From: a virus
Lineage: Duplodnaviria; Heunggongvirae; Uroviricota; Caudoviricetes
Direction: 5' to 3' (one strand)
IMG/VR virus record: IMGVR_UViG_3300023082_000008
Span: 1 to 64,000 of that record
Length of the DNA: 64,000 nt
Shown here: positions 38,737 to 58,085 of the stretch, in pieces
Numbering within the stretch: position 1 is the stretch's first letter
How the letters are laid out: every line of letters starts with the position of its first letter
Made by a program: the position numbers and the translations under genes
The notes under the pieces: model-generated
Seen by the model: only the letters and a program-made list of their open reading frames with translations
Told to the model about the DNA's origin: nothing
The model's database searches: none

Positions 38737-38742
38737 AGACAC

Positions 38743-42625: not shown

Positions 42626-42818
42626 AGTAAGCAATGGTGCAAGGATCAAGTGGAACGGCTTCGCCCATCATGTCATCTCTGTACCGCCTCCCAATCTAGA
42701 AAATGCAAAGACCAAGACGCCCATGATGTGTAAGTTCATGCTTGCTACACGCCTGGGACACCACGGTACCGTCATTGAGATTGCCGTACCCTTCGATGAA
42801 GAAATGGAAGTACTATGA
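42612..42818 (+). CDS. hypothetical protein
   Basis: 68-aa ORF. Confidence 0.45.
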   Translation: MLAYEVSNGARIKWNGFAHHVISVPPPNLENAKTKTPMMCKFMLATRLGHHGTVIEIAVPFDEEMEVL

Positions 42819-43183: not shown

Positions 43184-43243
43184 TAACATGAAAGATCGTG
43201 CTATGGGTAAACTCGGTATGTGTCTGCTCAAGGTGTTGAGAGA

Positions 43244-43474
43244 ATGACTTCGCTATGGATTGAAGGATATGCGGCTACCGGCGACGGTGGTCCAGCACAA
43301 TACCTTGGAGAATATGAGGGTGAATACTTCGAGGCGGTAGCCAAATGGGCTATTGAGAAGAACTCAAGGCAGGAATGGGGCACACTGCGTTATGACACAG
43401 ACACAAAGGTCTGGTCAGCGTGGGGCTGTCGCATCTTCGACAATGAGTCAGAGGCTAGGAGCGCATTCGGGTGA
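43244..43474 (+). CDS. hypothetical protein
   Basis: ATG at 43244 after AAGGTG. The track GTG at 43220 is an alternative. Confidence 0.45.
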   Translation: MTSLWIEGYAATGDGGPAQYLGEYEGEYFEAVAKWAIEKNSRQEWGTLRYDTDTKVWSAWGCRIFDNESEARSAFG

Positions 43475-43848
43475 TCGCATGGATAATCCTTGCTCATCTT
43501 GTAGGGGACTACCTTTTACAAACTGACTGGATGGCTCAGGAAAAAACTAAACGTTGGCTACCGGCCATTCTGCACGGTCTGGCGTACACTCTACCGTTCT
43601 TGTTGATCACAACCTCGCCATGGGCGTTGCTGGTCATTGGTGGCACACACATTGTAATCGACCGGTACAGACTGGCCAAGCATGTGGTATGGTTCAAGAA
43701 CCAGTTGCAGCCCAAGCGTTATCGTCCAGGCCACACTCCGACCGGTATGCTAGAAGAGACACCTGACTGGTTGGCCTACTGGCTACTCTTTATCCAAGAT
43801 AACATTATCCATATTCTAATCAACGTATTGGCGGTAGTATACCTATGA
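43471..43848 (+). CDS. DUF3307-like membrane protein
   Basis: AHLVGDYLLQTDWMA followed by TM helices. 125 aa. Confidence 0.45.
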   Translation: MIAWIILAHLVGDYLLQTDWMAQEKTKRWLPAILHGLAYTLPFLLITTSPWALLVIGGTHIVIDRYRLAKHVVWFKNQLQPKRYRPGHTPTGMLEETPDWLAYWLLFIQDNIIHILINVLAVVYL

Positions 43849-43984
43849 CAAATATTGAATTTAGATTCCCCGGTGGGCGTTGGGAGCCCGTGCCACCCCA
43901 GTACACAGTCACCCAAGCATTTATTATGTACGCTAACTATGATCTTCGTGTAGAGGGAGAAATCTACTTAGCACAGGGAGAAGA

Positions 43985-44656
43985 ATGACAAACAACCCAT
44001 TCAGCGATATTTTTGGGGAAGAGCCCAAAAATACAGGGCCAATCGTGAAGAATGCACCCGCAAACTTCATGGTTTTGAACCAACTCAACCCTTTCTTGGC
44101 AGGGACAAAGGGATTTGTGGCTGGTGGAGTGTTCAAAAACATCTTTACGCAGACACCTTTTAGAGATGTCGACGTATTCTTTCGCTCGGAGGCTGACTTC
44201 AACGAGGCTGACCGTGATTTTGAGGACATTCAAAACCTAGAATTGATTTATGAGAACGACAAGGTACGTGCATTCCGTAAGAACGGTGTGCGTGTTGAGT
44301 TGATTCGTCACACATTTGGTGAGCCACAGGACTTGCTGACCAACTTTGACTTCACAATTACGAAGTTTGCGTATGGTTTTGCTCTTCCTGACCCCAATTC
44401 CACTGAAAAAGTGCAGATTACACCTCGTTTTGTATGGCATCACGAAGATTTCTTCGAGCACTTGGCCATGAAGCGCCTTGTGATTGATGATAGACTGGTT
44501 TTGCCTGTCAATTCTTGGGAAAGATCGTACAAGTATGCTCGTCAAGGCTACAATCTGTGCAAGGACAGCAAGATTACCCTGCTCAGTGAGATTATTCGAC
44601 GCGGACCGGTAGAGGAAAGCGATCTACAGGCTGGCCTATACGCAGGGATTGACTAA
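43985..44656 (+). CDS. Pol-beta-superfamily nucleotidyltransferase (second NTase, distinct from the CCA enzyme)
   Basis: GFVAGGVFKNIFTQTPFRDVDVFF fits the hG[GS]-x(9-13)-Dh[DE]h NTase signature. 223 aa. Confidence 0.55.
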   Translation: MTNNPFSDIFGEEPKNTGPIVKNAPANFMVLNQLNPFLAGTKGFVAGGVFKNIFTQTPFRDVDVFFRSEADFNEADRDFEDIQNLELIYENDKVRAFRKNGVRVELIRHTFGEPQDLLTNFDFTITKFAYGFALPDPNSTEKVQITPRFVWHHEDFFEHLAMKRLVIDDRLVLPVNSWERSYKYARQGYNLCKDSKITLLSEIIRRGPVEESDLQAGLYAGID

Positions 44657-44814
44657 ATGATCACTAACAATGAGTTCTATCGCTGGAAGACCATGTATTT
44701 GGCTAATCGCTACCGCTTTGTGGCCAGGCGTGGTCATCTTATGTCTGCTGATTACAGGCAAGGAATGTTGGATGCGCTAAAACATCTCGAAAATAACATG
44801 AGAATTGAGGGATC

Positions 44815-45099
44815 GTGAATAAAGTAGTGGCCGGTAGTTTAAATGGCTCACATCTAGGACGCCTTTTGTCTAAAGACGAAATTGCTAAGACAACGGGACT
44901 GCTCCCTCTTCAAGGACACTTTTGGTATGGAATTATCACAAATATTCAGCATACCAAGGATGGTTCGGTGACAGTTCTGTTAAGCATTCCTCCAAAGATG
45001 CAGGATTTGAAGAAAATCGTCTCTAATCGTAATCCTTATACAAGACAGCATCACATGTACTTGTCTCAGGATCAGGAAATTGAGTTAGTGGCATCGTGA
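44815..45099 (+). CDS. hypothetical protein
   Basis: 94-aa ORF. Confidence 0.45.
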   Translation: MNKVVAGSLNGSHLGRLLSKDEIAKTTGLLPLQGHFWYGIITNIQHTKDGSVTVLLSIPPKMQDLKKIVSNRNPYTRQHHMYLSQDQEIELVAS

Positions 45100-45512
45100 A
45101 ACGTTTACTAATTACCGGCTCGCGTAATTTTACAGACGCGAATGCAATGACAATCTATCTTCGTGGTGCGTATCGCAAACTCAAACGAGATATCAAAATT
45201 CTTGAGGGAGTTGTTGCACCGATCACTCTGGTGTCAGGGAACGCACCCGGTGCCGATCTAATGGCTGAGGATATTTGGAGCCGGTATGTCAGCACCGAAT
45301 TAATCGAACGCTGGCCAGCCAAGGATTTTTCTCACCCGCTTAAGCGCAACGATCACATGGTAGGTCTCGGTGCTGATATGTGTGTGGCCTTTCCAACGTG
45401 GTGCGTGCAACTCAAGTGCAAAGGCAGACCGAAGCACTACAGCCATGGCACAGACTACACGATCAAAAAAGCACAGACCGCAGGTATTGACACACGCGTT
45501 CTCATGCCCTAG
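45096..45512 (+). CDS. SLOG/DUF2493-like Rossmann-fold protein
   Basis: LLITGSRNF...VSGNAPGADLMA resembles the YspA/DprA-like SLOG nucleotide-binding core. Confidence 0.45.
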   Translation: MKRLLITGSRNFTDANAMTIYLRGAYRKLKRDIKILEGVVAPITLVSGNAPGADLMAEDIWSRYVSTELIERWPAKDFSHPLKRNDHMVGLGADMCVAFPTWCVQLKCKGRPKHYSHGTDYTIKKAQTAGIDTRVLMP

Positions 45513-45514
45513 AC
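45486..45514 (+). promoter_or_regulatory. promoter TTGACA-17-TAGACT
   Basis: TTGACA 45486-45491, TAGACT 45509-45514. Confidence 0.5.
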
Positions 45515-45544
45515 TGGTGGCACACCAACGAACTAGGAGTGACT

Positions 45545-45775
45545 ATGATTAAGGTCCAGTACGTCATGAGATACCTGAACGGTCTGTACGTGCAGCGTGA
45601 TGACTCTACCGGCCCCATGTCCACCGGAGGCTACCCGACCCCCGTTCCCGACATCGAGGACGCGACGGTATGGGACGATCTTGAGTCTGCCATGAAGTAC
45701 CAGCAGATGTTTATTCGATCTACTCCATTCGAAATCTTTCAGGTCACTGTTACCTACAGCGTGGAGGCTATCTGA
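45545..45775 (+). CDS. hypothetical protein
   Basis: ATG at 45545 after AGGAGTG. Confidence 0.5.
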   Translation: MIKVQYVMRYLNGLYVQRDDSTGPMSTGGYPTPVPDIEDATVWDDLESAMKYQQMFIRSTPFEIFQVTVTYSVEAI

Positions 45776-45935
45776 TGGACACTTGGCATTACCAACTCGG
45801 TAGCCCAGCCACGACGACCCAGACCCAAGGCACCGTTCAGGCGGTAGACTGGTACGGTGCGCTTAACGAAGTGACCAGGGTCATCAAGGACTCGGGTCTT
45901 GAGCCCAACGAGGTTTACGTTTGGAGTGATGACGC

Positions 45936-46202
45936 GTGAGTAATTCAGCCAAGGACGTTTCAGGAATGCTCTGGGACGATATTCGCAAGACCTTGCGTGA
46001 CGCCGAGAAAGGGGTATTCACCAGGGATGATTACTGGAACCTGGTTCATCTGATTAACGATTATGGATTTGCCATGCAGGTCGCCGGTATCCGTGGAGAA
46101 GTCCATTCAGAAGCCAGAGAGCGCGTGTTCTCCAACATTATGGGTGCAACTCCCGGTGTTGATGCTCGTGAAGATAGGGAGAAGTACAACTATGGCGGTT
46201 GA
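45936..46202 (+). CDS. hypothetical protein
   Basis: 88-aa ORF. Confidence 0.45.
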   Translation: MSNSAKDVSGMLWDDIRKTLRDAEKGVFTRDDYWNLVHLINDYGFAMQVAGIRGEVHSEARERVFSNIMGATPGVDAREDREKYNYGG

Positions 46203-46206
46203 GCGT

Positions 46207-46491
46207 ATGATCTGTTGTGGCGAACTGACCCACGTGTACGGTGACGCTGGTAATCGCCCACACGCAAAGAACTGCAAGAATTACAACCCTCGCAAGATGG
46301 ACATTGAGACGTTCCTGACCGAGTACCCTGAGCGCCTGCGCCGTCAACTCAAGTCGCTAGAGGTCAAGGCGCAGGAATATGAGCGTTCCTATGGTGGAGG
46401 TGGCTACGATCCGTCAGAACTGACCCGCATTGCCGGTAAGATCGAGGGAATCAATATTGCCCTGTCCAACTGGTCGGAGATGTGCCAGTAG
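46207..46491 (+). CDS. hypothetical protein
   Basis: ATG at 46207 (MICCGELTHVY...). Confidence 0.45.
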   Translation: MICCGELTHVYGDAGNRPHAKNCKNYNPRKMDIETFLTEYPERLRRQLKSLEVKAQEYERSYGGGGYDPSELTRIAGKIEGINIALSNWSEMCQ

Positions 46492-46645
46492 TGGCTAGGT
46501 CAGGATGGTGCATCGAGAACACCAAGCACACCGAAGAACTAGAGGCGTGCAAGTGGGATAAGTGTGATTGCAAATGCCATAACGCCAACGGTACCGGCAT
46601 CAACCCAACAAAGCGCAAGCCCACCAAGAGAAAAGGTAAGTACTA

Positions 46646-46825
46646 ATGTTCGTTCTGTTCATCATTGCAGCAGTTATCGCTGGTCTTCAAGGCATTGTTC
46701 GTATCTTCAATATGATTGTTGCAATTGAGGAAGACCTTGAGGATGAGTTTACTTCGGCCTTCTTTGGGTTCGTCTGGGCAGTGTTCTTTGTCGTTATGTT
46801 CATTCTGGCAGCGATACATGTTTAA
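46646..46825 (+). CDS. small membrane protein (59 aa)
   Basis: Two hydrophobic helices and an AAAAGGTAAG ribosome-binding site. Confidence 0.4.
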   Translation: MFVLFIIAAVIAGLQGIVRIFNMIVAIEEDLEDEFTSAFFGFVWAVFFVVMFILAAIHV

Positions 46826-46996
46826 GCGTTATCAAACATTGGGGCTGATTACACTACCTGAGCCACCAGACACTACCATCCGTCGTGCTCACTTGACAAT
46901 CTATGGTGGTCTATGGCATCGTAGAAGTATGATCCGACTGTACCGCCAGCGGTACGGGAGGCATCATGTCATTGTACACAAATCTAGGAGAAAATC

Positions 46997-47254
46997 ATGA
47001 CAGAGTTTCGAGCGAAGCACGGCAAGGTGCTCATTAACCTTACCGATGTACCTTCTCCACCTGACAATGTATACTCAGAACTCCTAAAGGAAGAGGCTAG
47101 CCGATACCGCCCCACATGGGACGCGTCTACTTTTTGGAATATTGTCAATTCTCTGGTTGATTTTGGGTACATTGAAATTGTCAATGATGTTGAATTGAAA
47201 CTGACCAACGATGGAAAGTTTCGCAGAGAATTCTTCATCAAAGAACAGGATTGA
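46997..47254 (+). CDS. hypothetical protein
   Basis: 85-aa ORF. Confidence 0.45.
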   Translation: MTEFRAKHGKVLINLTDVPSPPDNVYSELLKEEASRYRPTWDASTFWNIVNSLVDFGYIEIVNDVELKLTNDGKFRREFFIKEQD

Positions 47255-47269
47255 TGTTACAATAGTTCT

Positions 47270-47485
47270 ATGAGCCTTTTTAGAACACAGGAAGAACTAG
47301 TGGGACACGTCTCACAGATAATGGAAGCAAATGGTTGGCATAAGGAATGGGTAAACATTTCCACCGCTGGCACATGCCTCATTAGATGGTCCAAGGCAGG
47401 TTACGATTTCACCATGTCGTTGGAAGACATGCTTGGACTTGATGGTACACCCCTTCCAGATGTTTCAGACTTACTCGTAGACTAA
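47270..47485 (+). CDS. hypothetical protein
   Basis: 71-aa ORF. Confidence 0.45.
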   Translation: MSLFRTQEELVGHVSQIMEANGWHKEWVNISTAGTCLIRWSKAGYDFTMSLEDMLGLDGTPLPDVSDLLVD

Positions 47486-47494
47486 GGATCAATC

Positions 47495-47749
47495 ATGGAA
47501 TTCAAGGATGGCGACCGCGTACATGGCCAATACGGTAACGTGTGGGAACGCCGCAGCGGACGATGGGTCAATGTAGAGACAGCGTCTCCGTTGACTTCAT
47601 GTTCAGACTCAACAATGGAATACCTGTTGGGTCTTAAAGTCGACTACCCAAAGCCTACCGAAACCAAAGGTCCGAAGAAACTCTCCAAAAGCGCGCCGGT
47701 AGAAGTTCCTATTTACGTTTACAAGTTCACTCTTAAGCAGGGAGAGTAA
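47495..47749 (+). CDS. hypothetical protein
   Basis: 84-aa ORF. Confidence 0.45.
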   Translation: MEFKDGDRVHGQYGNVWERRSGRWVNVETASPLTSCSDSTMEYLLGLKVDYPKPTETKGPKKLSKSAPVEVPIYVYKFTLKQGE

Positions 47750-47979
47750 TGTCAACTTCAACACTGGAAATGATTGAAACCAACAAGAATGCAGAAATCA
47801 ATGATATTGCTCATTTGTACTGCGGAGAATGCTACCCTTACGACCCAGACTGCACACACGCCATGTGTGGTCATGAGTTTGAATCAGAATGGGCCGATGA
47901 CAGCGCGATAGAAGACGATGAATGCGTTGTTTGTGTAGATTTGTTTGAAACGCATTGTTATAGGGAGCACGGGGAATGA
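47749..47979 (+). CDS. Cys-rich hypothetical protein
   Basis: 76-aa ORF with several Cys pairs. Confidence 0.45.
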   Translation: MSTSTLEMIETNKNAEINDIAHLYCGECYPYDPDCTHAMCGHEFESEWADDSAIEDDECVVCVDLFETHCYREHGE

Positions 47980-48266
47980 TCGTGCATATTGGTCGTTCGT
48001 GGGAGCCAGACCAGCATCTAGAGATTGCTTGCCCTTGTCCAAAGGCCCCTTGCGGACTCGTATTAATGTCGGGGACTAATGATCCAGACATTATTTACTG
48101 TGAGCAGCACGACCCTGCTGAGGCCCGCACAATGCGCCAGATTCATAATGACACTCACTGTCCTTCCATGGATCATGCAATTTCTGAGGAAGCCGCAGCC
48201 CAATGGAGAGAATGGGCGGTAGAGCAAGGTGCAGAGGTTGTTGACACGTCCGATCTGTTCCGCTAG
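47976..48266 (+). CDS. Cys-rich hypothetical protein
   Basis: 96-aa ORF with CPCPKAPCG. Confidence 0.45.
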   Translation: MIVHIGRSWEPDQHLEIACPCPKAPCGLVLMSGTNDPDIIYCEQHDPAEARTMRQIHNDTHCPSMDHAISEEAAAQWREWAVEQGAEVVDTSDLFR

Positions 48267-48269
48267 ACT
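48241..48269 (+). promoter_or_regulatory. promoter TTGACA-17-TAGACT
   Basis: TTGACA 48241-48246, TAGACT 48264-48269. Confidence 0.5.
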
Positions 48270-48296
48270 GTAGTCACACAGACCTTAGGAGAAATT

Positions 48297-48680
48297 ATGG
48301 ATGTTAAGTCATTCGAGCAGGTTCAAGAGCCTAGCAGCGAGAATGTGCAGATGGTTCATGCCTTCACCCTTGGTCGTCAGGACCGCACGCTCGTCTATGG
48401 CTATACCCTTGAGCGTGAGACGTTTCACGTGTATGTGCGCGGTGGAGAGATTCATGTGCACATCTACAATCACAGGGGAGAGACGCTCAGCCACATTCAT
48501 GGTGATGAGTTGCCTGCTGAGGCTTTACGTCCATCCAAGCGTGCATACCCGGCTCTTACTGAGTATGCTTTTGCTCAGTATATGAAGAGCATTGGTTTTC
48601 CGTTAACGTTTACTACATTCAACCAGAATCAGTACGACAAGAACCTTTTCGCTACTTACTATGGAAAGTTGGCCCCATGA
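48297..48680 (+). CDS. hypothetical protein
   Basis: 127-aa ORF. Confidence 0.5.
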   Translation: MDVKSFEQVQEPSSENVQMVHAFTLGRQDRTLVYGYTLERETFHVYVRGGEIHVHIYNHRGETLSHIHGDELPAEALRPSKRAYPALTEYAFAQYMKSIGFPLTFTTFNQNQYDKNLFATYYGKLAP

Positions 48681-48847
48681 GCGATTCATCTATTTTTGCT
48701 GTTGCACGGTCCATTCAAGATATGGCTCAGCAGAAGCGCGTCGAAAACATTCTTGAACTGGCCAGCATGTATAATGCCAAGGGTAATCGAAGACTGGCTG
48801 AGTCCTACATGACCAGGGCAGGCGAAGAACTTGGACTGAACACATGA
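48677..48847 (+). CDS. small hypothetical protein
   Basis: 56-aa ORF with ATGA overlaps on both sides. Confidence 0.35.
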   Translation: MSDSSIFAVARSIQDMAQQKRVENILELASMYNAKGNRRLAESYMTRAGEELGLNT

Positions 48848-49047
48848 GGACCGAGGAGTTGACCAAGCGCTTGCATGATCTGCGCATGGCTCAGGAGATT
48901 TTCATTCGACAGGGTGATATCAAGTCTGCTATGATCATGACGGTTGCGATTGGCGAGGCCAGTCGTGAGTCAAGCAATTCGAATCGTCGTGCGCGGTACC
49001 TAGAGTATCAGAACAGGAAGCGTCACTATGAGCCTGCGAGGCATTGA
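48844..49047 (+). CDS. hypothetical protein
   Basis: 67-aa ORF. Confidence 0.4.
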   Translation: MRTEELTKRLHDLRMAQEIFIRQGDIKSAMIMTVAIGEASRESSNSNRRARYLEYQNRKRHYEPARH

Positions 49048-49228
49048 AAGTCAACTTAGACGCATTGCTAACGCTTTAGAGGTAATGGCCGGTACAGAAA
49101 GTACCGCTCAAATAAGAGTGCGCCGTCAGAGACAAACAGAGCGAGAAATCTACGGCAATCCTGACATAGCATGCGGCAAGCAAATTTGTGGCCTAGGAGA
49201 TGGTCACCTAGGAAAGTGCAGGTATTAG
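49028..49228 (+). CDS. hypothetical protein
   Basis: 66-aa ORF. Confidence 0.35.
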   Translation: MSLRGIESQLRRIANALEVMAGTESTAQIRVRRQRQTEREIYGNPDIACGKQICGLGDGHLGKCRY

Positions 49229-49510
49229 ATGGCGATCATGGATACTGACTTCGATTTTTTCACTTTTGAAGATTTGGATGTGGAGTGTGAAGCGCTTCAT
49301 CACGAAAAGTATGGGAATGGACCTGCTATTGCATTGGTTACTAAAATTCATCCTTGTTGCGGATACAAGAATAATTACTACTTTTGTGCAGGATGCGTTT
49401 TCGATATTACCACTTCAACAAAGCAAATTATTCATAGCCTAGGCCCTCGGCCTTGTGGTGGACGTTACACGCCCAAAAAGATTGCTGTCAAGAAAGTAGA
49501 GTACTTATGA
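49229..49510 (+). CDS. Cys-rich hypothetical protein
   Basis: 93-aa ORF with HPCCGYKNNYYFCAGC. Confidence 0.45.
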   Translation: MAIMDTDFDFFTFEDLDVECEALHHEKYGNGPAIALVTKIHPCCGYKNNYYFCAGCVFDITTSTKQIIHSLGPRPCGGRYTPKKIAVKKVEYL

Positions 49511-49698
49511 ATAAATATGAACTGTGGACGGAGCAGGACGGTATTGAGTGCAAGAGTCTAGTTAATGACCTAATGCCCGAAGAACTAGAGACGCTTGAGA
49601 GCGCCCAGAATATTGCTAACGAAATGAACGCCGTCGCGGTAGAGAAGAGAGACCCCGACGATCGCATGTTCTATTTCGTCAAGGAAATCCTAGAGTGA
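49507..49698 (+). CDS. hypothetical protein
   Basis: ATG at 49507 with ATGA overlap. Confidence 0.4.
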   Translation: MNKYELWTEQDGIECKSLVNDLMPEELETLESAQNIANEMNAVAVEKRDPDDRMFYFVKEILE

Positions 49699-49958
49699 TG
49701 AATGAGAAGTTGGAAGAGTACTGGCTTGTCACCTACCGCACGCTAGAGCGTGTAAAGACTGAGATGAGCCACATGGGTGATCACTGGGACGCTGTTAATT
49801 TAGGTGAGTGGGAGACGCTACCTCATAATTTTGAAGCCCGTCAATCCGCTGCTGCGGCCTTCTGGGCGTACGTTGATCAAGGATACGACTGTCGATTCAA
49901 GCACGTTCTGGTGAGAAAGGAAATCACCAACGAGCCTGCTCCACAGAGGCCCAAGTGA
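49695..49958 (+). CDS. hypothetical protein
   Basis: 87-aa ORF. Confidence 0.45.
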   Translation: MMNEKLEEYWLVTYRTLERVKTEMSHMGDHWDAVNLGEWETLPHNFEARQSAAAAFWAYVDQGYDCRFKHVLVRKEITNEPAPQRPK

Positions 49959-50164
49959 ACGAGGAATACCTTCTTCGTATTCGATTTTGTCAGGCGGCAC
50001 GCACAACACGTCATGCCATTGCTGACGAACTGGGATATAACCCACCAAAGGCGGGCGGTAGCGATTTCGGTTGGGACGGAGAAGTTTTAAGACTCATAAA
50101 AGAAAACAATCAGATGGACCGCCTTAAACGAATACTAATTAAGAGAGGGATTCTACGTGACTGA
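49955..50164 (+). CDS. hypothetical protein
   Basis: 69-aa ORF. Confidence 0.4.
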   Translation: MNEEYLLRIRFCQAARTTRHAIADELGYNPPKAGGSDFGWDGEVLRLIKENNQMDRLKRILIKRGILRD

Positions 50165-50319
50165 CGAAAAGTGGGCCGGTAGAATTTGTATTATGTGTAA
50201 CGGTACGGGCATCCATCACATTCTTGATCCCGACACACCTCCCATGACAACAACGCGCCGTGACATAGCGACCAATCTTAATTGCCCAACATGCAATGGA
50301 CATGGAAGGGAACCAGCGG

Positions 50320-50523
50320 ATGACTGATTTTGAGTATGAGATGTTTGAGATGCGTAAGGCCAAGACATACGCTATTGAAAATCAGGTGTCAGTCATGTTC
50401 ACTCACAAAACCAAAGGCGCTCAGAGGTGCCACTGCGGGCGGTACAAAGGCAGGCAAGGGCCCTGCTCCTTAGAGTTCAAAGTATACAGAGACGGATCAT
50501 TCATGGGATGGGAACACTATTGA
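50320..50523 (+). CDS. hypothetical protein
   Basis: ATG at 50320. Confidence 0.4.
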   Translation: MTDFEYEMFEMRKAKTYAIENQVSVMFTHKTKGAQRCHCGRYKGRQGPCSLEFKVYRDGSFMGWEHY

Positions 50524-50620
50524 TGAAGAGACTCATTAACCGCATACGCAATCACTGGCGAAAGCATTGGGCCATGGAACCAGAAGAGATTCATGATGCT
50601 TCCAGATGGGGTGATAGGTA

Positions 50621-50950
50621 ATGCCTAGCACAACCAAGCATGTGTGTATTAAGCACAGAACCGTCAACAAGCCATGCTGTGATGAACCCAAGGCCAGCAC
50701 GCATCACTCGTGGAGACCTCCAAAGAAGAACGACGACAGGGCATGGAAGCGCATTGAAAATGGTGACTGGCTCTGGGATCACCGTATTATTGACAGTCGT
50801 CAGGAGGGCGGTAGAATGAGACTAGACCCAGATCGTTGGACCGAGGGCGGATTTAATGGCTACAATCATTGGGCAGAATGGATGAGAGAGTCAGCACCCT
50901 ACATGTCGCGGGAAATGAAAGCAGCATGGTACAGGAGTCTCAATGATTGA
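50621..50950 (+). CDS. hypothetical protein
   Basis: 109-aa ORF, Trp-rich. Confidence 0.45.
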   Translation: MPSTTKHVCIKHRTVNKPCCDEPKASTHHSWRPPKKNDDRAWKRIENGDWLWDHRIIDSRQEGGRMRLDPDRWTEGGFNGYNHWAEWMRESAPYMSREMKAAWYRSLND

Positions 50951-51137
50951 TAATTTTCATAATTGTTACGAAGGGCACTGCCCTGACTACCCGTTGATTA
51001 AGGTTATTAACGACGCTATAGAGAAGAGAAAAGACATGTCCAAGGCGTGGGTGGAAGGATACCGTGCTGCTATCAATGACACTGGTGCCATGTACGTTTA
51101 TGAGGTAACTCCAAATCCCTATGAAGATAATGACTGA
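50943..51137 (+). CDS. hypothetical protein
   Basis: 64-aa ORF. Confidence 0.4.
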   Translation: MIDNFHNCYEGHCPDYPLIKVINDAIEKRKDMSKAWVEGYRAAINDTGAMYVYEVTPNPYEDND

Positions 51138-51525
51138 TTTCAAGAACAACAAATACCTGAGTGCCATGTTAGCATGGGGACTTTTGTGCTGGGCATTTCT
51201 GGCCTACAAATTTTGGGGATGGATTTTTCGGTTTGCAATTTTTGAGTTTGAAAATTTCGGTTCTGAATTTTCGGTCACGAAAAACCGGTCAGGAAATTTC
51301 GGTCAGCACAAACCGAGCATGATGGACTGGGAAGCACCAGACGGTGTGCTAGAATTCAGTCATGAAGAAACGGAAGCCCACGTGGCCAAACTCCTAGAAG
51401 AACAGGTGCCCAAGGACGGGCTGGTACAGATGCTACACTCTGGATACAAACCCCAACACTACGACACAACAGACATTCGTATGGTGGTAAGGAAGAACAG
51501 ACGCGGAAAAGGGAGAACATGGTAG
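51121..51525 (+). CDS. membrane-anchored hypothetical protein
   Basis: 134-aa ORF with TM helix LSAMLAWGLLCWAFLAY. Confidence 0.5.
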   Translation: MKIMTDFKNNKYLSAMLAWGLLCWAFLAYKFWGWIFRFAIFEFENFGSEFSVTKNRSGNFGQHKPSMMDWEAPDGVLEFSHEETEAHVAKLLEEQVPKDGLVQMLHSGYKPQHYDTTDIRMVVRKNRRGKGRTW

Positions 51526-51725
51526 TAACGATTGTGGGAGTGGTGCTGCTTGTGATAGCATTCCTGTGCCCACTCATTCATGACATGTTTTTCAATCCAA
51601 AGATCATTGCAGCGAGGCACGAGCGCCAAGAGTGCAGGGCTAGAGCCTTTGATCAGGTGTGGGATGAGAACTGGAAGGGCTCCGATGAAGACAGCCCTGA
51701 TGGATTCAATAACGCCTTGAAGTAG
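51519..51725 (+). CDS. small membrane protein
   Basis: 68-aa ORF with an N-terminal TM helix. Confidence 0.45.
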   Translation: MVVTIVGVVLLVIAFLCPLIHDMFFNPKIIAARHERQECRARAFDQVWDENWKGSDEDSPDGFNNALK

Positions 51726-52192
51726 AGCCGGGCGGTATGAATAGACCAACTGATACATAGAAGAACTAAGAGATGCTATAGAGCATATGCCTGTTTGATA
51801 ACTTAACACAGACTGTCACAACCTCCCACATGTGTTAAGACCTGTGGCTGTGTGCATGACAGTGAAAAGATGCTACTTGTGATCAATGCTTCGCTGTTCT
51901 ACGGACATTGGATACCTAAAAAGAGTCCAATCCAAGTGTAGTTTGTCCAGTATGTGAGATATGATCTATCGAATAACGATAGATAGATATTTAGGTGTAA
52001 TAGATCAATAACATAAAAAGGCTCTTTTTTCCCTCCAATTGCAGTGTTTTTTGGCCATAGCGTTCAAAAGTTGGCCAAAACTGCCACAATTTGTACTAAA
52101 AGTGTAACATTTTGAACATTTTCCACAATTGCGACAAATATAGCCAATTTAGAGGCCAATTAGAGAAATTGTAGCGGCGCCCAGCAGTTTTT

Positions 52193-52270
52193 CAAAATCC
52201 CCAGAAATTCAAAAGACCCTTGTAATATGTACAAAATCCCCAGAAATTTGAAAAGTCCCTGTAATATGTA
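52193..52270 (+). repeat. tandem 39-bp direct repeat (2 copies) in an AT-rich non-coding region
   Basis: CAAAATCCCCAGAAATT(C/T)GAAAAG(A/T)CCCT(T)GTAATATGTA occurs twice in tandem. Confidence 0.7.
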
Positions 52271-52457
52271 ACTCATATGTGAGATACGGGTCAGGATTTT
52301 CCCCGGGGTCAGATCAACCAAAACAGGCCAAATCTACAATCCTACCCGATCCGTGAGATATTTTCAACCCATTTGCCACATTTTGAGACAAAATCTTTCC
52401 TGTCCACACTCTGAGACAGGACTATACAGGCCGATACAGAGTGTGTATGTTTGACCT

Positions 52458-52721
52458 ATGAGCACACAAACAGTTTACGCAAACATCTCTACCGGCCGCC
52501 TTGCAGCAAGGGTCGCCACCGACGACGCCTCGCTTGTGTCCGTATGGATTCCCAACGGTCCGGTGCTGGGGTTCTACAAGTTGAGCCGATTCGGTGGAGC
52601 GCTTTCCTCTAAGAGGCTTGCCAGACTTTTCGAGGCCAAGTGTGCGGGATGCTTTCACGCTACGGGTGGACGCTACAAGGGATGCCCGACAAGACAGAAT
52701 GGCACGCCGAACTACAACTAG
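52458..52721 (+). CDS. hypothetical protein
   Basis: 87-aa ORF downstream of the palindrome sites at 52376-52418. Confidence 0.45.
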   Translation: MSTQTVYANISTGRLAARVATDDASLVSVWIPNGPVLGFYKLSRFGGALSSKRLARLFEAKCAGCFHATGGRYKGCPTRQNGTPNYN

Positions 52722-52857
52722 ACAACCATCCATCCATAGGCTAAGATCGAACCATGATGCAAAACATCCTCGCAGTTCTTCCCTACATGGTAGGTTTGGC
52801 ATTCGTCGCCGCTACCGTCGCTCTCGCAGCGCACATGATTGAAAAGGATATGAGAAA

Positions 52858-53088
52858 ATGAGTTACACTCTCGGTTTCTTCGAACTGTCCGACGATCTAG
52901 CGCATGATCCGGACCCGGTGGAACTCTCCCACGGTGAGAATGTTACGCTACTCATGCGCGAGGCCATGGAAAAGTACAGTGTGCATACGTGGCGATTCGA
53001 CGGCGATTGCTGGGAGTCGGATAACACAACCCGATTCAATCACTCCCGTTGTGCAGGACGTTTTTACGTCATGGACAATTTCGACTAG
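52858..53088 (+). CDS. hypothetical protein
   Basis: 76-aa ORF. A strong hairpin at 53105-53147 follows. Confidence 0.45.
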   Translation: MSYTLGFFELSDDLAHDPDPVELSHGENVTLLMREAMEKYSVHTWRFDGDCWESDNTTRFNHSRCAGRFYVMDNFD

Positions 53089-53364
53089 TCCACCCTCTAG
53101 GGTTGAGAGGGAAGGGAAAATTTGTGGTGGATTTTCCCTTCCCCTCCCCGCACATGTGTGCTAGGATCAAGTCATGAAAACTTACCTGGTGGCAGTGCTC
53201 GGATATGACTATGACAGTGACGAAAGGGTCACCCTGTCATTCTTTGTCGAGGCCGGTAGCCATGAAAAGGCTAAAGACATAGTAGGATCATACAATCGTG
53301 TACGTACCCTTGAAAGGGTTACATTCATGGAAGCAAAACAACTCTAATCCTTTAAGGGGAATTC

Positions 53365-53580
53365 ATGTTTAAGACAATTGATACCGTACCGGCCCATACG
53401 TTGGAAGCGGGTGACGTATTCGATTCGGACAGTGACGGTATTGTTACTGTCGTGTCAGTTGATGATGAAGGTGACAATCTGACCGTTACTGCAACGGATT
53501 CTTTCGATGATACAATCGAATTCACCTTGAATCCCATTCGGGATATTCCTATTCTTCAAGAAGTAGATGACGAAGAATAA
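53365..53580 (+). CDS. acidic hypothetical protein
   Basis: 71-aa ORF. A 57-aa ORF at 53174-53347 precedes it. Confidence 0.45.
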   Translation: MFKTIDTVPAHTLEAGDVFDSDSDGIVTVVSVDDEGDNLTVTATDSFDDTIEFTLNPIRDIPILQEVDDEE

Positions 53581-53583
53581 TTG

Positions 53584-53632
53584 TCCACATTCTGAGACAG
53601 ACCTTGACAGGCTTAGACAGAGAGCATAGTCT
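53584..53632 (+). promoter_or_regulatory. palindrome site TCCACATTCTGAGACA plus promoter TTGACA-17-TAGTCT
   Basis: Inverted repeat at 53584-53599. TTGACA 53604-53609, TAGTCT 53627-53632. ATG of the downstream gene at 53639. Confidence 0.55.
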
Positions 53633-53638
53633 TTAGTC

Positions 53639-54193
53639 ATGAACACAGACACCGCAGTCAGGAACATCATCGCTACCGCCCGCAAGGCTACTGCCGCAGA
53701 GATTGAAGCGGGTGCCGAATGGTACGGCGTGGCACATGACGCTGCCAAGGATATGTCGTCTCTCGAAATGGGTGCGGGTGTGATTGCAGCACTGTCACCT
53801 ATGATGGGATGGGATCGAAACGTCATGCTTGCATACCGCGCATTCGCAGACGGAACAGCGTCCGGTGCTATGGGTGCCAGCGTCCGTAAGGCTAATGCAA
53901 TCATGACCGGAAACGACCCCCTGGACATTCTCGGCGGTGCTAAGGTACGATCGTTCTATGCAAACATCGTCAACCCTATGGGCGCGGACGTGACCATTGA
54001 TCGGCACGCGTTCGATATCGTTTACGGTCGTGCTACCGACGACAAGACTCGTGGCATTCTGTCCCGCAAGGGCATGTATGAGTTGCACGCCGACGCGTAC
54101 AGGCAGGCCGGTATGATGCTGGGTGGACTCACTGGCGCACAAATGCAGGCCATTACCTGGGTTGCGTGGCGCCGCATTAAGGGGATCAAGTGA
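53639..54193 (+). CDS. hypothetical protein
   Basis: 184-aa ORF. Confidence 0.6.
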   Translation: MNTDTAVRNIIATARKATAAEIEAGAEWYGVAHDAAKDMSSLEMGAGVIAALSPMMGWDRNVMLAYRAFADGTASGAMGASVRKANAIMTGNDPLDILGGAKVRSFYANIVNPMGADVTIDRHAFDIVYGRATDDKTRGILSRKGMYELHADAYRQAGMMLGGLTGAQMQAITWVAWRRIKGIK

Positions 54194-54288
54194 GATATGC
54201 GCAATATTGTTGCGTTTGTGGATGCTTGCATGAACATGACTTGCATAGGCCTAAGTCACCCAAACCTACATACCCACCAAGATTCTAA

Positions 54289-54338
54289 TCTCACATACTG
54301 AGACACCACTATACAAACCTCACACGATAGGCTACACT
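54289..54338 (+). promoter_or_regulatory. palindrome TCTCA-CATAC-TGAGA plus weak-minus-35 promoter TATACA-17-TACACT
   Basis: Inverted repeat 54289-54305. TATACA 54310-54315, TACACT 54333-54338. A small basic ORF at 54346-54492 follows. Confidence 0.5.
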
Positions 54339-54491
54339 AGAACCATGAAGAACAACCGTCGCCCCCAGACCCCCAAGTCCACCCCGCGCGCATTCGCTGG
54401 CAAGTACCGCGAATCGGACGACTTCAACACACCTACCGCGCGGTACGATCGTTCCGACGATCGTCGCGCTCGACAGAACGGATACAAGTAA

Positions 54492-54866
54492 ATGACAAAT
54501 ACGTATGCTCTAGGCATTAACGAAACAAATGCAGATACACACCTATGGATTAAGGTGGACGGTCCAGACAATGAGATTGTCTTTACCTCATTCGCCGAAG
54601 CCCTTAAGTCGAATGTTGAGGGATCGTTTGCAGTAGCAGACGTCATTGCAAACCTTAAGGCCGATCACCTTAAGATTCTGGCTATCTATGTCGATAGCGT
54701 TCCTACCGTCGATCATACTCCGCATCTTTTCAGTGAGGCAGACCTCAGCGTTACCCTATTCGATAAGGAATCGGGTGACTACCTAGTCACTCGTGGCATT
54801 GAGTCGTGGGCCGGTATCTATGGCGTACGTGTCACGGTCCCTGACCATGGTATCAGTGTCCACTAG
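54492..54866 (+). CDS. hypothetical protein
   Basis: 124-aa ORF. A rho-independent terminator at 54886-54920 follows. Confidence 0.55.
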   Translation: MTNTYALGINETNADTHLWIKVDGPDNEIVFTSFAEALKSNVEGSFAVADVIANLKADHLKILAIYVDSVPTVDHTPHLFSEADLSVTLFDKESGDYLVTRGIESWAGIYGVRVTVPDHGISVH

Positions 54867-54885
54867 TCCTAGCACATAAGTCTAT

Positions 54886-54920
54886 CCCCTGTCTATACCG
54901 GCAGGGGATTTTCTTTTCTC
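54886..54920 (+). terminator. rho-independent terminator
   Basis: CCCCTG-TCTATACCGG-CAGGGG followed by ATTTTCTTTTCTC. Confidence 0.65.
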
Positions 54921-54929
54921 AAATTTCTA

Positions 54930-54979
54930 TCTCAACATGTGAGATAGAGGTAGACAGGGCATGATATCCCTAGTATTGT
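54930..54979 (+). promoter_or_regulatory. palindrome TCTCA-ACATG-TGAGA plus TAGACA promoter
   Basis: Inverted repeat 54930-54944. TAGACA 54951-54956. A -10 candidate TATTGT 54974-54979. Confidence 0.45.
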
Positions 54980-55019
54980 TCTATTTGTAAGGAAAACACA
55001 CACTCACAAAGGGAAAATC

Positions 55020-55274
55020 ATGCGTATCACTCGCAAGATGGTCGATGCTCGGATCGAATCGGTCAACGTTCTTTTGGGCCACGGTGAGAATCCGGCCTAT
55101 AGCACGGTGGGCGCGGTTACTCTCGGTTCCGCCTACGGTGGATACAGGGTGGAACGATACTGCAATGATGCCGGGGCGGTCTCGACTCTCACCAATGGAT
55201 ATGGTACTCTGCGAGAGGCCTATGGTTTCTTGCAGGGCATGCTTTCCGGTCTGAGAATCTCGAAGGAGATTTAA
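55020..55274 (+). CDS. hypothetical protein
   Basis: 84-aa ORF. Confidence 0.5.
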   Translation: MRITRKMVDARIESVNVLLGHGENPAYSTVGAVTLGSAYGGYRVERYCNDAGAVSTLTNGYGTLREAYGFLQGMLSGLRISKEI

Positions 55275-55324
55275 TCTCACATTCTGAGATTCCACTAGAC
55301 AAGCCAATCAGGATAGGCTAGATT
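55275..55324 (+). promoter_or_regulatory. palindrome TCTCA-CATTC-TGAGA plus promoter TAGACA-17-TAGATT
   Basis: Inverted repeat 55275-55289. TAGACA 55296-55301, TAGATT 55319-55324. ATG at 55331. Confidence 0.55.
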
Positions 55325-55330
55325 AGAGAC

Positions 55331-55675
55331 ATGAAAACAAACACCGCAAGAGAATACCTCGTCGGAAAGGGCCTCGCAAAGGCCGGACGGGGAAAGTTCT
55401 CCAACGCTGCAAAAGAGCACCTGTCGGAAGCAATCGCCGCCGGTATGGTATTCTCTGATTACTCTGAAAAGGGTTCATCTGCTAAGGTGAACATGACAGA
55501 AGAATCGTACGAAATTGCTCCCATGACGTGGCCCAATGGGTCCGCCCGATTTGTCGAAAACGGCAAAAAAATTTCCATGAAAAGTGCTTGCAATTCATGC
55601 GGATACAGTCTAGGCTGGTGTGAGTGCGCAACGCCTCGTGTCTACAGTAAGGTCGTGGTCATATCAGCAAACTAA
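55331..55675 (+). CDS. hypothetical protein with C-terminal Cys cluster
   Basis: 114-aa ORF with CNSCGYSLGWCEC. Confidence 0.5.
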   Translation: MKTNTAREYLVGKGLAKAGRGKFSNAAKEHLSEAIAAGMVFSDYSEKGSSAKVNMTEESYEIAPMTWPNGSARFVENGKKISMKSACNSCGYSLGWCECATPRVYSKVVVISAN

Positions 55676-55868
55676 GCAAGGCCGCAAATGTGGGAATTTA
55701 CGGTGCCGCGTCAACTGTTGCACTGGCACTGATTATTCCCGCTGCGATTCTGTTCGGATTGTTCGCAGTCTTTTTGAAGGCACTTGTCTAAAAGACTTGA
55801 TTCGAACGCGAAACACTGATACACTCAAAACACACCGCAAAACACACACTCATAGAAAAGAGAATCAC

Positions 55869-56189
55869 ATGTCGAACAACACCAACGCCCCCGTCCTGGT
55901 CTCCGCTTCCTACGTCCGCGATTGGGCCGTCCGTACCGGTCTCCGGTCCGCTGAGGCCAAGGTCATCGGAAAGTTGACCAACGCCGAGGTTTCGGCTTTC
56001 AACAGCAAGCACAAGAGCAAGGCGTACAAGCCCGGCCAGGCTCCGGCGAGTACCATCGCCGTCAAGGTCGGTCGAAAGGTTGTCCACGTCGAGAGTGCCA
56101 CGCTGCGGTCCGCGATCGGTGCCGGTAAGCGTGGAAAGGTCAACGCGAGCAAGGCCGCTGAGTACGTCATCGGTGCCGGTCTGGTCTGA
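55869..56189 (+). CDS. possible Lsr2-like DNA-binding protein
   Basis: SYVRDWAVRTGLRSAEAKVIGKLTNAEV resembles the Lsr2 DNA-binding helix region [23 protein letters not shown]. Basic, 106 aa. Confidence 0.3.
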   Translation: MSNNTNAPVLVSASYVRDWAVRTGLRSAEAKVIGKLTNAEVSAFNSKHKSKAYKPGQAPASTIAVKVGRKVVHVESATLRSAIGAGKRGKVNASKAAEYVIGAGLV

Positions 56190-56207
56190 TACGGGCCAAA
56201 AAGTTTT

Positions 56208-56250
56208 GAGAAAAATTCTCCCTAGAACTTCCCTAGGGAGAATTTTTCTG
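56208..56250 (+). terminator. bidirectional terminator palindrome
   Basis: GAGAAAAATTCTCCCTAG...CTAGGGAGAATTTTTCT: a perfect 18-bp inverted repeat flanked by A- and T-runs. Confidence 0.65.
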
Positions 56251-56293
56251 TTATGCTAGTTTTACAAGCCAATCACGAACAGAGGAAAATGAA

Positions 56294-56503
56294 ATGAAGT
56301 CCACTATTGCTACCATCGTTGTCGCCCTGTCTTTTGTTGTCGTTTCCCCGGCCTCGTCTGCGGATGCGCACGAAAGCGGTAAGCGGACCGAAACCGTGTA
56401 CGGAAAGATCAAGATGAACAAGACAAGCAAGTTCATCTGCAAGGGCAACACGTTCGATTCTGCTCCTTCGGGTCGCCTCTGCAAGACCAACAAGTGGCAG
56501 TAA
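56294..56503 (+). CDS. small secreted protein
   Basis: Signal peptide MKSTIATIVVALSFVVVSPASSADA. 69 aa with two Cys. Confidence 0.5.
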   Translation: MKSTIATIVVALSFVVVSPASSADAHESGKRTETVYGKIKMNKTSKFICKGNTFDSAPSGRLCKTNKWQ

Positions 56504-56719
56504 AAAAGTGGCCGGTAGGACTAGACACCTACCGGCCACTAGGCTAGACTCTAGATATGAACACAAACACAAGCGGACAGACCGACTACTGCGACTACTG
56601 CGAAACTACGGTTACGATCGTAGACGACTCCATCGAATCTGACGACATGGGTTTTGAGTATCATGTTTACATGTTTTCTTGTGGCCACGATTCCGCCCTG
56701 AAATTGTTCTAAAAAGATT

Positions 56720-56749
56720 CCCCAATCTGCGGATTGGGGCTTTCTTTTG
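56720..56749 (+). terminator. rho-independent terminator
   Basis: CCCCAATC-TGCG-GATTGGGG followed by CTTTCTTTTG. Confidence 0.65.
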
Positions 56750-56791
56750 CTCCGATTCTGTACTAGGATGGGTTTGGTGCCTGAAAATAAA

Positions 56792-56843
56792 TCTCACTAT
56801 GTGAGATGGCCCTATACAGGGTGGCCGGTATGTGCATAGAAAA
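56792..56843 (+). promoter_or_regulatory. palindrome TCTCA-CTATG-TGAGA plus TATACA promoter
   Basis: Inverted repeat 56792-56806. TATACA 56813-56818. Upstream of the 56940 gene. Confidence 0.45.
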
Positions 56844-56939
56844 TTCAAAGATATTCAAAATAGGGCTTGCATAGACTATCCCCATACCCTAGACTGTAGA
56901 TACAAGGTAACAACAACCCACACACACATAGGACATACC

Positions 56940-57287
56940 ATGCTCAACCTTGATACCTACTACTACGGCACCGGATACAAGGGCACCAATGCGGTGGCCT
57001 ATGAGACGGGTACGGGTGTGCAGGCGGTAGCAGTAGGGGATACTATGGCCGATGCAGTGCACAAGATGACTATGTGTGCTAGTGATGATGAAACAAACAT
57101 CATTGACTATGTGTGGATGGATGCAGCACAACATGTCTCATATGTCTCTCTCATGAACGCATATGATGGATGCCGCGTCGCTTGCGACTCATGCAACGAC
57201 CCGGTGACGCTTGAAGTTGTCGACTGGATCGACGCGCGGGGCACGTGCGAGTCTTGCGGTAGTGAGGTGACTTACTACGACTTCTAA
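56940..57287 (+). CDS. Cys-rich hypothetical protein
   Basis: 115-aa ORF with several Cys pairs in the C-terminal half. Last + strand gene before the strand switch. Confidence 0.5.
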   Translation: MLNLDTYYYGTGYKGTNAVAYETGTGVQAVAVGDTMADAVHKMTMCASDDETNIIDYVWMDAAQHVSYVSLMNAYDGCRVACDSCNDPVTLEVVDWIDARGTCESCGSEVTYYDF

Positions 57288-57294
57288 GGCATGT

Positions 57295-57326
57295 GGGAGG
57301 CCCGCTAAGGGCCTCCCATTCCTTTT
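57295..57326. terminator. bidirectional terminator between convergent gene blocks
   Basis: GGGAGGCCC-GCTAA-GGGCCTCCC followed by ATTCCTTTTAGG. Lies between the + strand gene ending at 57287 and the - strand gene ending at 57438. Confidence 0.65.
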
Positions 57327-57437
57327 AGGTTCGTCAGTATATCGGCGCACTAAAGGGTCTCAGATCGCAATATTTGCGGCCTGTATCATCCAAGAATATC
57401 CAGATGTTAACCCTAGCAATATTTAGAAAGTTAACAA

Positions 57438-58085
57438 TTACTTTGTATCGACGCCGCGCATGTCAACGCCATTTCTTAACTTGCTGACAATGACTTTTGA
57501 GACTCCGTACTTTTCTGCCATAGACTTTCCAGAACCACGACTGTATGGTTTTGTGAGGATATCTGCTACAGCCTCAGGAGAGAGTTTGCTACGATACTGT
57601 TGGCGAGGTATGTTTCGATTCTCTCCACCGGTATAGAATTCAAAAGACCGACCGGTAAGGATTCTTCTAACCAGTTCTTCTGAGACATTGTACTGCTGTG
57701 CCAAGTCAACGACCATTGTCTTAGTAATGGGAGAATTGTAAATGTTCTTCACGTCTTTGATCGGAAGAAGATTGTGTCCTCTTTCCTTTGACAATTTATC
57801 GTCACTGTTGACCTTGGCTGTGCCTAGAAAAAGATGTTCGGGACGAACACATTTTCGATTGTCACACTTGTGGCACACCTGAAATCCTGTAGGATCACCA
57901 TTGAAAACCTCGTATGTTATCCTGTGAGCGCCAATGGTTTTTTGTCTACCCGTGAAGTCGCGCAGATTTCCGTATCCCGTGCGAGTGTTCTTGGTCCACT
58001 CCCAGCAGTGCCCCAGTTCCGGTCGCACGATGGTACCAGTTTTGTCAACGTTATCCCAGAACCAGTCTGGTATTAAAATAGTCAT
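57438..58085 (-). CDS. HNH homing endonuclease (HNH_3 type)
   Basis: [15 protein letters not shown]...[11 protein letters not shown]...[18 protein letters not shown] core with a C-terminal DNA-binding region. Confidence 0.7.

Follow-up and report, generated by a model that had tools for sequence, protein, structure and literature searches.

Here we describe a non-coding gap at positions 51726 to 52457 of a 64,000-nucleotide (nt) stretch of phage DNA (the window; positions 1 to 64,000 of IMG/VR record IMGVR_UViG_3300023082_000008). With slightly more confidence than doubt, we interpret this gap as the place where the unique right arm of a linear phage genome meets a direct terminal repeat (DTR) of about 5.4 kb. 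The boundary was placed by homology, and the predicted DTR spans 52003-57386 (5,384 bp). A preliminary description of the gap had named three candidates: a replication origin, a packaging site and a terminal-repeat boundary. The boundary, which would also be a terminase cut site, is the one favored by comparison, because the long DTRs of relatives start in the equivalent gap, the left-end motif of BE-cluster phages occurs in the gap and a right-end motif lies 5.4 kb downstream. The origin found no support.

Stanwilliamsviridae are tRNA-rich actinophages with DTRs. The phage studied here is, by its gene features and by protein identities of 28-40%, an uncultured distant relative of this family from soil. 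Its genome is large, the window encodes 36 transfer RNAs (tRNAs), a transfer-messenger RNA (tmRNA) and a GOLLD RNA, and both an rIIA-like and an Lsr2-like gene are present. The rIIA-like protein is 28-40% identical to those of Stanwilliamsviridae phages of Streptomyces and of Trinavirus phages of Rhodococcus, with its N-terminal half closest to Loccivirinae (about 40% identity). The window is identical to a contig from a European Nucleotide Archive (ENA) metagenome, k141_1069415 (126,220 bp, MEGAHIT; source assembly ERZ27228600, source run SRR7963841). The terminal 141 nt of the contig equal its initial 141 nt, which is also the assembler's k, and the window reads straight across the contig breakpoint, at 5269-5409; with this overlap the assembly closes into a circle of 126,079 bp. 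Circular closure is what a collapsed terminal repeat looks like in a lineage with linear genomes, and is compatible with a DTR without being proof of one.

The gap contains no open reading frame (ORF) and is bounded by the stop codon of a 68-amino acid (aa) ORF (51519-51725) and the ATG of an 87-aa ORF at 52458, both on the + strand. Measured as 725 nt, it is the longest stretch free of ORFs and RNA genes on the dominant coding strand of the window, the runner-up being 348 nt. Its GC content, 39.9% compared with 48.7% for the window, falls in the bottom 0.08% of 732-nt windows. The AT-rich, non-coding region of about 730 bp that had been described is therefore real, and so are its repeats. The two 39-bp tandem copies at 52193-52270, which are 85% identical when compared ungapped, form the top-scoring tandem repeat of the window in Tandem Repeats Finder (TRF; period 39, 2.0 copies, 90% matches, score 126). 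Repeated 7-mers number 63 in the gap and 23.7 ± 5.6 in dinucleotide shuffles, with none of 300 shuffles as high; when the second tandem copy is removed, the count is 45, compared with 19.5 ± 5.4 in shuffles. The reiterated short motifs reported earlier are concentrated here as well, since the gap holds three of the five + strand copies of ACATTTT in the window and two of the three of CCACAATT; it also has two of the five of GCCAATT.

The gap occupies a conserved place in the genome. In every relative examined, the long rightward gene block is followed by a large non-coding gap, measuring 1.0 kb in Coruscant, 1.3 kb in Samisti12, about 1.3 kb in Mildred21 and Tomas, 1.5 kb in Faust and Annadreamy, and 1.9 kb in NiceHouse. 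Related phages thus have a large gap, and not an ordinary gene, at this position. As in these phages, the gap of the window is flanked on one side by a rightward block of tRNA and small genes and on the other by the block leading up to the ThyX genes of the left arm. Past the gap, genes run rightward up to 57287, and a leftward block extends from 57438 to the ThyX gene at the end of the window.

The right physical end of the genome, between 57386 and 57387, is well supported by homology. To place it, we aligned the right ends of records with read-determined ends (loci L002, L115, L118, L003, L120, L124, L125 and L122). In all seven Stanwilliamsviridae phages examined, which represent two subfamilies (Coruscant, Samisti12, Tomas, Faust, Annadreamy, Blueeyedbeauty and Daubenski), exactly 34 nt separate GCGCACTA from the genome end, and the last bases are ..AT/ (here and below, a slash marks the cut). 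CAT follows in the three whose next bases were read (Coruscant, Faust and Annadreamy). Elsewhere in about 150 kb of the relatives' genomes, the motif hardly ever occurs. In NiceHouse, a Rhodococcus phage, the spacing from GCGCACTA to the end is 32 nt, and at the record end of Trina, also a Rhodococcus phage, the motif is not present. The window has the same signature at 57345-57389, within a 150-bp spacer between converging gene blocks, and its junction CCTGTAT/CATCC compares with CCTATAT/CATAC in Faust. This region is kept, with one substitution, in the sole close relative that we found in the collections searched, a syntenic 6.5-kb JGI contig (L019) with a 697-nt gap at the same place. The gene that follows the predicted end also has its counterpart in the relatives: it encodes an HNH endonuclease with 32% aa identity (E = 8e-25) to Coruscant gp025, and it lies 52 nt past the predicted right end, while gp025 lies 46 nt past the end of the left DTR copy.

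A second motif marks the left end in part of the family. In Coruscant, Samisti12, Mildred21 and Warpy, the first DTR base directly follows GTGTAAT(A/G), the 8-mer seen in the window as GTGTAATA, and each fetched locus has a single + strand copy of this 8-mer. For Tomas, the motif was first used to predict the left junction, which the start of the record then bore out; the junction of Daubenski carries a one-mismatch variant, ATGTAATG/. In six of six Boydwoodruffvirinae, then, the left end falls directly after (G/A)TGTAAT(A/G) and inside the equivalent gap; in the four for which the distance was computed (Coruscant, Samisti12, Mildred21 and Warpy), the DTR starts 154-433 nt past the last + strand gene. 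In the window, GTGTAATA is the only + strand GTGTAAT(A/G) in 64 kb. It is located in the gap, 278 nt past the last gene, and within a 13-nt block identical in L019. Together with the next base, GTGTAATA/G at 51995-52003 matches the BE junctions; the motif is short, and it ranks from 1 to 8 among about 128,000 positions in a position weight matrix (PWM) scan, depending on motif length. The shorter core TGTAAT(A/G) is enriched in the gap, with three of its 11 occurrences in the window (P = 2e-4) and all seven of those in L019 (P = 2e-7).

Base composition changes at the same point. GC skew is +0.077 across 38000-51725 and +0.11 across 51726-52002, which resembles the upstream genes, then -0.14 across 52003-52457 and 0.008 across 52458-57287. 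A local maximum of cumulative skew falls at 52003 and is followed by a plateau. Skew drops to about zero at the gap, although gene direction turns only at 57.3 kb. In Coruscant, Mildred21 and Warpy the skew maximum lies 20-38 nt past the junction; no such coincidence was seen in the other relatives tested. The interval 52003-57386 also coincides with a module set apart by a promoter type of its own, by GC skew near zero and by an Lsr2-like gene.

The closest parallels are the BE phages (Boydwoodruffvirinae: Samisti12, Mildred21, Warpy, Daubenski, Coruscant and Tomas), which, like the phage studied here, are rich in tRNA and tmRNA genes and have genomes of about 130 kb. Their DTR starts in the large gap after the rightward block, directly past (G/A)TGTAAT(A/G), and ends 34 nt past GCGCACTA at ..AT/CAT, with an endonuclease gene following, which is the arrangement we predict for the window. 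Their repeats also resemble the downstream block in holding many small genes with individual signals, an Lsr2-like gene included, and tblastn matched the Lsr2-like gene of the window to those inside the DTRs of Coruscant, Samisti12 and Tomas. The multi-kb DTRs that the preliminary description attributed to relatives are indeed carried by the BE cluster. For BE1 phages, DTRs of about 11 kb have been reported, with an lsr2-like gene as the one recognizable gene of the repeat (PMC5764925), and the Coruscant DTR is 12,244 bp. BE repeats, at 10.7-12.2 kb, are longer than the 5.4 kb predicted here, and BE phages and the window share no detectable DNA similarity and protein identities of only about 30%.

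NiceHouse (Trinavirus) provides a parallel that is closer in size. Its genome has the same order of a rightward block, a gap (1.9 kb), small + strand genes and the right end, and its DTR of 5,291 bp, near the length predicted here, starts in the gap, 270 nt past the last gene. A tandem repeat lies inside the terminal repeat in both cases, with 2.3 copies of 46 bp at +102 to +207 in NiceHouse and two copies of 39 bp at +191 to +268 here. NiceHouse differs in its left junction (..ACATTCATTA/GCG), in a leader of 1.6 kb as opposed to 0.45 kb, and in that its repeat gave no Lsr2-like hit.

Several observations weigh against a long repeat that starts at 52003. The genes of BE DTRs lie on the strand opposite to that of the block genes in the window. 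NiceHouse, Faust and Annadreamy use other left junction sequences, so the left motif is not universal. About two GTGTAAT(A/G) per strand are expected by chance in 64 kb, and a 14-nt PWM scores three + strand sites higher (233, 50203 and 50652, the latter two within annotated ORFs a short way upstream). By chance alone, a top hit would land in the gap with a probability of about 0.01-0.09, depending on the motif definition, which was chosen after the data were seen. Short stretches of the leader match BE leaders at similar offsets (CAAAATCCCCAGAA compared with CAAAATACCCAGAA), but local alignment of the leader to BE DTR leaders was not significant (z <= 2.6). The cut between 52002 and 52003 is suggestive only. 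Other left cuts are less well supported than this one: between 52163 and 52164 (GCCAATTAG/, an Annadreamy-like sequence), at 52227 or 52266 (the TGTAATA cores of the tandem repeats), and between 52449 and 52450 (GTGTGTATG; GTGTAATG in L019), a sequence that more plausibly serves as the first promoter's -10 element.

The most serious challenge comes from the Loccivirinae (Faust, Annadreamy and Blueeyedbeauty), whose DTRs of 772-789 bp start about 6 kb past their gap and just before the right end, which likewise counts against a repeat that begins in the gap. If the phage studied here followed this plan, a DTR of less than 1 kb would start at 56.3-57.0 kb and end near 57386. The gap would then be an internal control region without a genome end, separating the rightward block from an early module and supplying promoters, operator-like repeats and protein-binding sites. 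The layouts agree well, since Loccivirinae have a 1.5-kb gap 5-6 kb before the right end, an identical right-end motif and spacing, and a - strand ThyX block past the end; Faust and Annadreamy, whose DTRs are 772 and 789 bp, have + strand small genes across those 5-6 kb, as the window does. The Loccivirinae-like N-terminal half of rIIA and the promoter-like elements of the gap, with conserved hexamers and variable spacers, also fit. However, the + strand from 52.5 to 57.4 kb contains neither GTGTGTA(A/T) nor TGTAAT(A/G), the nearby copies of which all fall in the gap; NiceHouse combines the same layout with a 5.3-kb DTR that starts in the gap; and the compositional break is at 52003 and not near 56.6 kb. 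We regard a short repeat as unlikely on balance, yet as an alternative to be taken seriously. The Loccivirinae gap also contains DnaA boxes and GTTGAA..TTCAAC palindromes, neither of which was seen in the gap of the window.

Two further observations concern the ends of the Loccivirinae. The 14-mer GTAACATTTTGAAC, at 52103-52116 of the window, is identical to a Faust sequence about 20-33 nt past the end of the left repeat copy (L004 791-804), and Annadreamy keeps a 13-nt core of it; the 14-mer may represent a protein-binding site that the phages have in common near their genome ends. Faust (L003 17896) and Annadreamy (L120 9939) have reported left ends 24 nt apart in homologous sequence, with Faust +21..+33 (TTAGGCCGCAATT) aligning with the Annadreamy junction TTAG/GCCGCATTT. 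This means either that the cut site moved or that one of the end calls is shifted.

We regard the gap as a real, conserved and functional non-coding region. Among 5.8 billion proteins, the flanking 87-aa, 134-aa and 68-aa proteins have relatives in one place only, which is L019. IMG/VR yielded no relative of the 134-aa protein and none of a 21-nt conserved block, and DNA of the gap region (51000-53500 and 51500-53200) had no match among 50,697 phage records in near or distant search modes. A metagenome DNA scan with the tandem-repeat core returned 95 hits, all of which were chance matches by BLAST. Identity to L019 is 56% at 51726-51900, 69% at 51901-52020 and 74-86% at 52021-52457 (above 80% at 52021-52270), and the two ORFs upstream of the gap are 67% and 79% identical at the nucleotide level, so that the gap is conserved as much as its neighboring genes or more. 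Blocks at 52074-52093, 52107-52118 and 52143-52163, in the cluster of short motifs, are perfectly conserved. Both 39-bp units are retained at 86% identity, including the differences specific to each copy, which answers the question of repeat conservation raised by the preliminary description. Three 1-nt insertions or deletions within the conserved stretch rule out a coding role; a 53-aa ORF on the - strand (52160-52321) was rejected as a gene, its frame being broken by these three changes.

The gap also contains two leftward promoter-like sites. The hexamers of the first (52168-52195) are identical in L019, where the spacer differs in sequence and length, and the second (52339-52367) likewise has conserved hexamers and a variable spacer; transcripts from the two would begin near 52161 and 52332. 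Promoters with palindromes had been proposed from 52272 onward; the palindrome at that position, CTCATATGTGAG, does exist in the window, but it is not conserved in L019, and the first complete promoter of the type found downstream is at 52423-52451. With conservation of this degree and no sign of RNA folding (see below), DNA-level sites are the most likely explanation of the conserved features, rather than RNA.

Could the gap instead be, or also be, a replication origin, in which an initiator binds the iterated motifs, an AT-rich region unwinds and the leftward promoters activate or prime synthesis? The low GC content, the significant excess of repeats, the conservation of the gap and the conserved - strand promoter-like sites would suit such a role, and the homologous gaps of Faust and Samisti12 each hold three perfect DnaA boxes (TTATCCACA). 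These boxes are at L003 11606-11879 in Faust and at L115 6952-6996 in Samisti12, the latter 50-95 nt before the first DTR base, and similar ones are visible in Mildred21, Warpy and Daubenski. In phages that have them, host DnaA could be recruited at or near the genome end. In four of the six BE phages DnaA boxes lie just before the left junction, whereas the window has none; its gap contains only two one-mismatch matches (52119 and 52400), neither conserved in L019. The GC-skew check that had been proposed for an origin gave, over the 64-kb window, a cumulative maximum at the gap and not a minimum, in a genome where gene orientation dominates and thus confounds the skew. We also found no hit to an initiator or helicase loader in the ten downstream genes, no precomputed Pfam hit in the upstream genes and no DNA similarity to any known origin. 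Together this makes an origin improbable.

Least probable is that non-coding RNA is made from the gap, as one or several species such as leftward antisense or regulatory transcripts from the two sigma-70-like promoters: the conserved hexamers and a well conserved stretch without an ORF would allow it, but no Rfam family matched even at E <= 10, save two hits at chance level, folding energies did not differ from those of shuffled sequences on either strand (z from -0.7 to -0.9) and no convincing terminator was found on the - strand.

We hypothesize that the DTR is generated as follows. Terminase would cut concatemers at or near the junction of 52002 and 52003, just past GTGTAATA, to give the left end of one genome, and at the junction of 57386 and 57387, 34 nt past GCGCACTA, to give the right end of the preceding genome. 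Virion DNA would then carry 52003-57386 at both ends and measure 126,079 + 5,384 bp, or about 131.5 kb. The first 455 nt of the repeat, the leader, contain three TGTAATA cores, two of them in the 39-bp repeats, as well as the other iterated motifs. These leader repeats most likely serve as recognition sites for the packaging machinery or for another end-binding protein. The leader would also hold the first of a series of host-type promoters, most giving leaderless mRNAs, from which the small genes of the repeat would be transcribed. Phages T5 and SPO1 (cited in PMC5764925) provide the analogy from which we infer that these genes, the Lsr2-like gene included, are expressed early. The T5 repeats and the SPO1 terminal redundancy are exact, extend over several kb and carry small, individually promoted genes for early functions and host takeover, and T5 has a repeat-rich non-coding stretch inside its terminal repeat. 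The likeness is one of organization, with neither sequence nor gene homology between T5 or SPO1 and the phage studied here, and with different hosts and promoter types.

A variant of this proposal, to which we give little credence, is that the 455-nt leader is a multifunctional terminal control region or a signal that pauses or stops the DNA as it enters stepwise. As a control region, the three TGTAATA cores, the other repeats and the two leftward promoters may couple transcription to end processing or to the initiation of replication, as has been reported for the concatemer junctions of T7. A pause or stop role in DNA entry has been proposed for the non-coding, repeat-rich part of the terminal repeat in T5.

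The features of the gap, of the predicted repeat and of its flanks are collected in Table 1.

Table 1. Positions of features in and around the gap and the predicted terminal repeat, in window coordinates.
Feature	Position	Strand	Remarks
Unique right-arm tail, non-coding, upstream of the predicted left cut	51726-52002	+	less conserved portion of the gap
Conserved inverted repeat ATTGGA-N13-TCCAAT	51907-51931		within the right-arm tail
Conserved block TGTCCAGTATGTGAGA	51944-51959		within the right-arm tail
Candidate left-end junction motif GTGTAATA	51995-52002	+	predicted cut 52002/52003
Conserved non-coding leader, predicted first 455 nt of the terminal repeat	52003-52457	+	
Short reiterated motifs: TTGGCCA x2, CCACAATT x2, ACATTTT x2, GCCAATT(T)AGAG x2	52040-52165	+	
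Putative leftward sigma-70-like promoter, TTGAAA-16 nt-TACAAT	52168-52195	-	best consensus match (10/12) in a 7-kb scan
Two 39-bp tandem repeats, each ending in TGTAATATGTA (a further copy of the TGTAATA core)	52193-52270	+	TRF
Second putative leftward sigma-70-like promoter, TTGAAA-17 nt-TAGGAT	52339-52367	-	same scan
First promoter of the downstream type: upstream palindromic element TGTCCACACTCTGAGACA, -35 TATACA, 17 nt, -10 TATGTT, 6 nt, ATG 52458	52401-52457	+	
Small-gene block in which every gene has a promoter and a terminator; predicted terminal-repeat body	52458-57287	+	
DUF7178 gene	53639-54193	+	
Lsr2-like gene	55331-55675	+	phrog_6269, E = 1.5e-16
Right-end site: GCGCACTA plus 34 nt ending ..CCTGTAT, then CATCC	57345-57386	+	unique in the window on both strands
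HNH endonuclease gene, first of the unique left arm	57438-58085	-	Pfam HNH_3

In a pattern scan, six genes of the block, at 52.4-56.6 kb, share the promoter geometry T(A/T)(G/T)ACA-17 nt-TANNNT-6 nt-ATG, and the same geometry occurs only once elsewhere on the + strand of the window. As this spacing has no room for a leader or a ribosome-binding site, leaderless mRNAs are implied. A TCTCAC..GAGA palindrome stands just 5′ of several of these promoters, and the block contains 16 terminator-like sites, with 6.3 ± 2.7 expected. The first promoter is conserved in L019 despite a different gene behind it: the 87-aa ORF of the window (52458-52721), which the ENA gene caller missed, is replaced by an unrelated 71-aa ORF (L019 1565-1780). 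A gene cassette has thus been swapped at the first position of the block, while the promoter, the gap and most of the downstream genes were kept.

Within the block, the DUF7178 gene has homologs with 33-39% identity in IMG/VR (L006-L018) that lie about 0.1-2.2 kb from one end of their contigs, which are mostly about 50 kb and belong to unrelated phages; the family may be associated with genome ends in general. A perfect 17-nt inverted repeat with a 7-nt spacer at 56209-56249 (AGAAAAATTCTCCCTAG / CTAGGGAGAATTTTTCT), which follows a gene ending at 56189, probably acts as a bidirectional terminator. On the other side of the gap, a 14-nt tandem repeat at 51223-51306 (about 3.7 copies, TRF score 53-54) lies inside the ORF at 51121-51525, which encodes the 134-aa membrane-like protein, and this stretch is among the better conserved parts of the gene in L019. 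Farther upstream, a 223-aa ORF at 43985-44656 (+) matches PF26128 (Gad2) in precomputed Pfam annotation; the family takes its name from an anti-Gabija counter-defense protein. The GOLLD RNA (RF02032) is full-length, at 17533-17937 on the + strand, and scores 187.7 bits against a gathering score of 150; it sits amid the 36 tRNA genes and adjoins the tmRNA gene (related coordinates 15204-15591 and 975-37743).

Metagenomic assemblies collapse terminal repeats into circles and so normally lose the true ends, the length of the repeat and the record of which genes occur twice. By our prediction, the repeat is a 5.4-kb module whose small genes, the Lsr2-like gene among them, have promoters of their own and likely form an early or host-takeover set. 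A terminal repeat is the expected biology for this lineage, and the useful by-product is a pair of cut-site rules, GCGCACTA plus 34 nt for the right end and (G/A)TGTAAT(A/G), with one blind prediction, for the left, which allow ends to be predicted from sequence alone.

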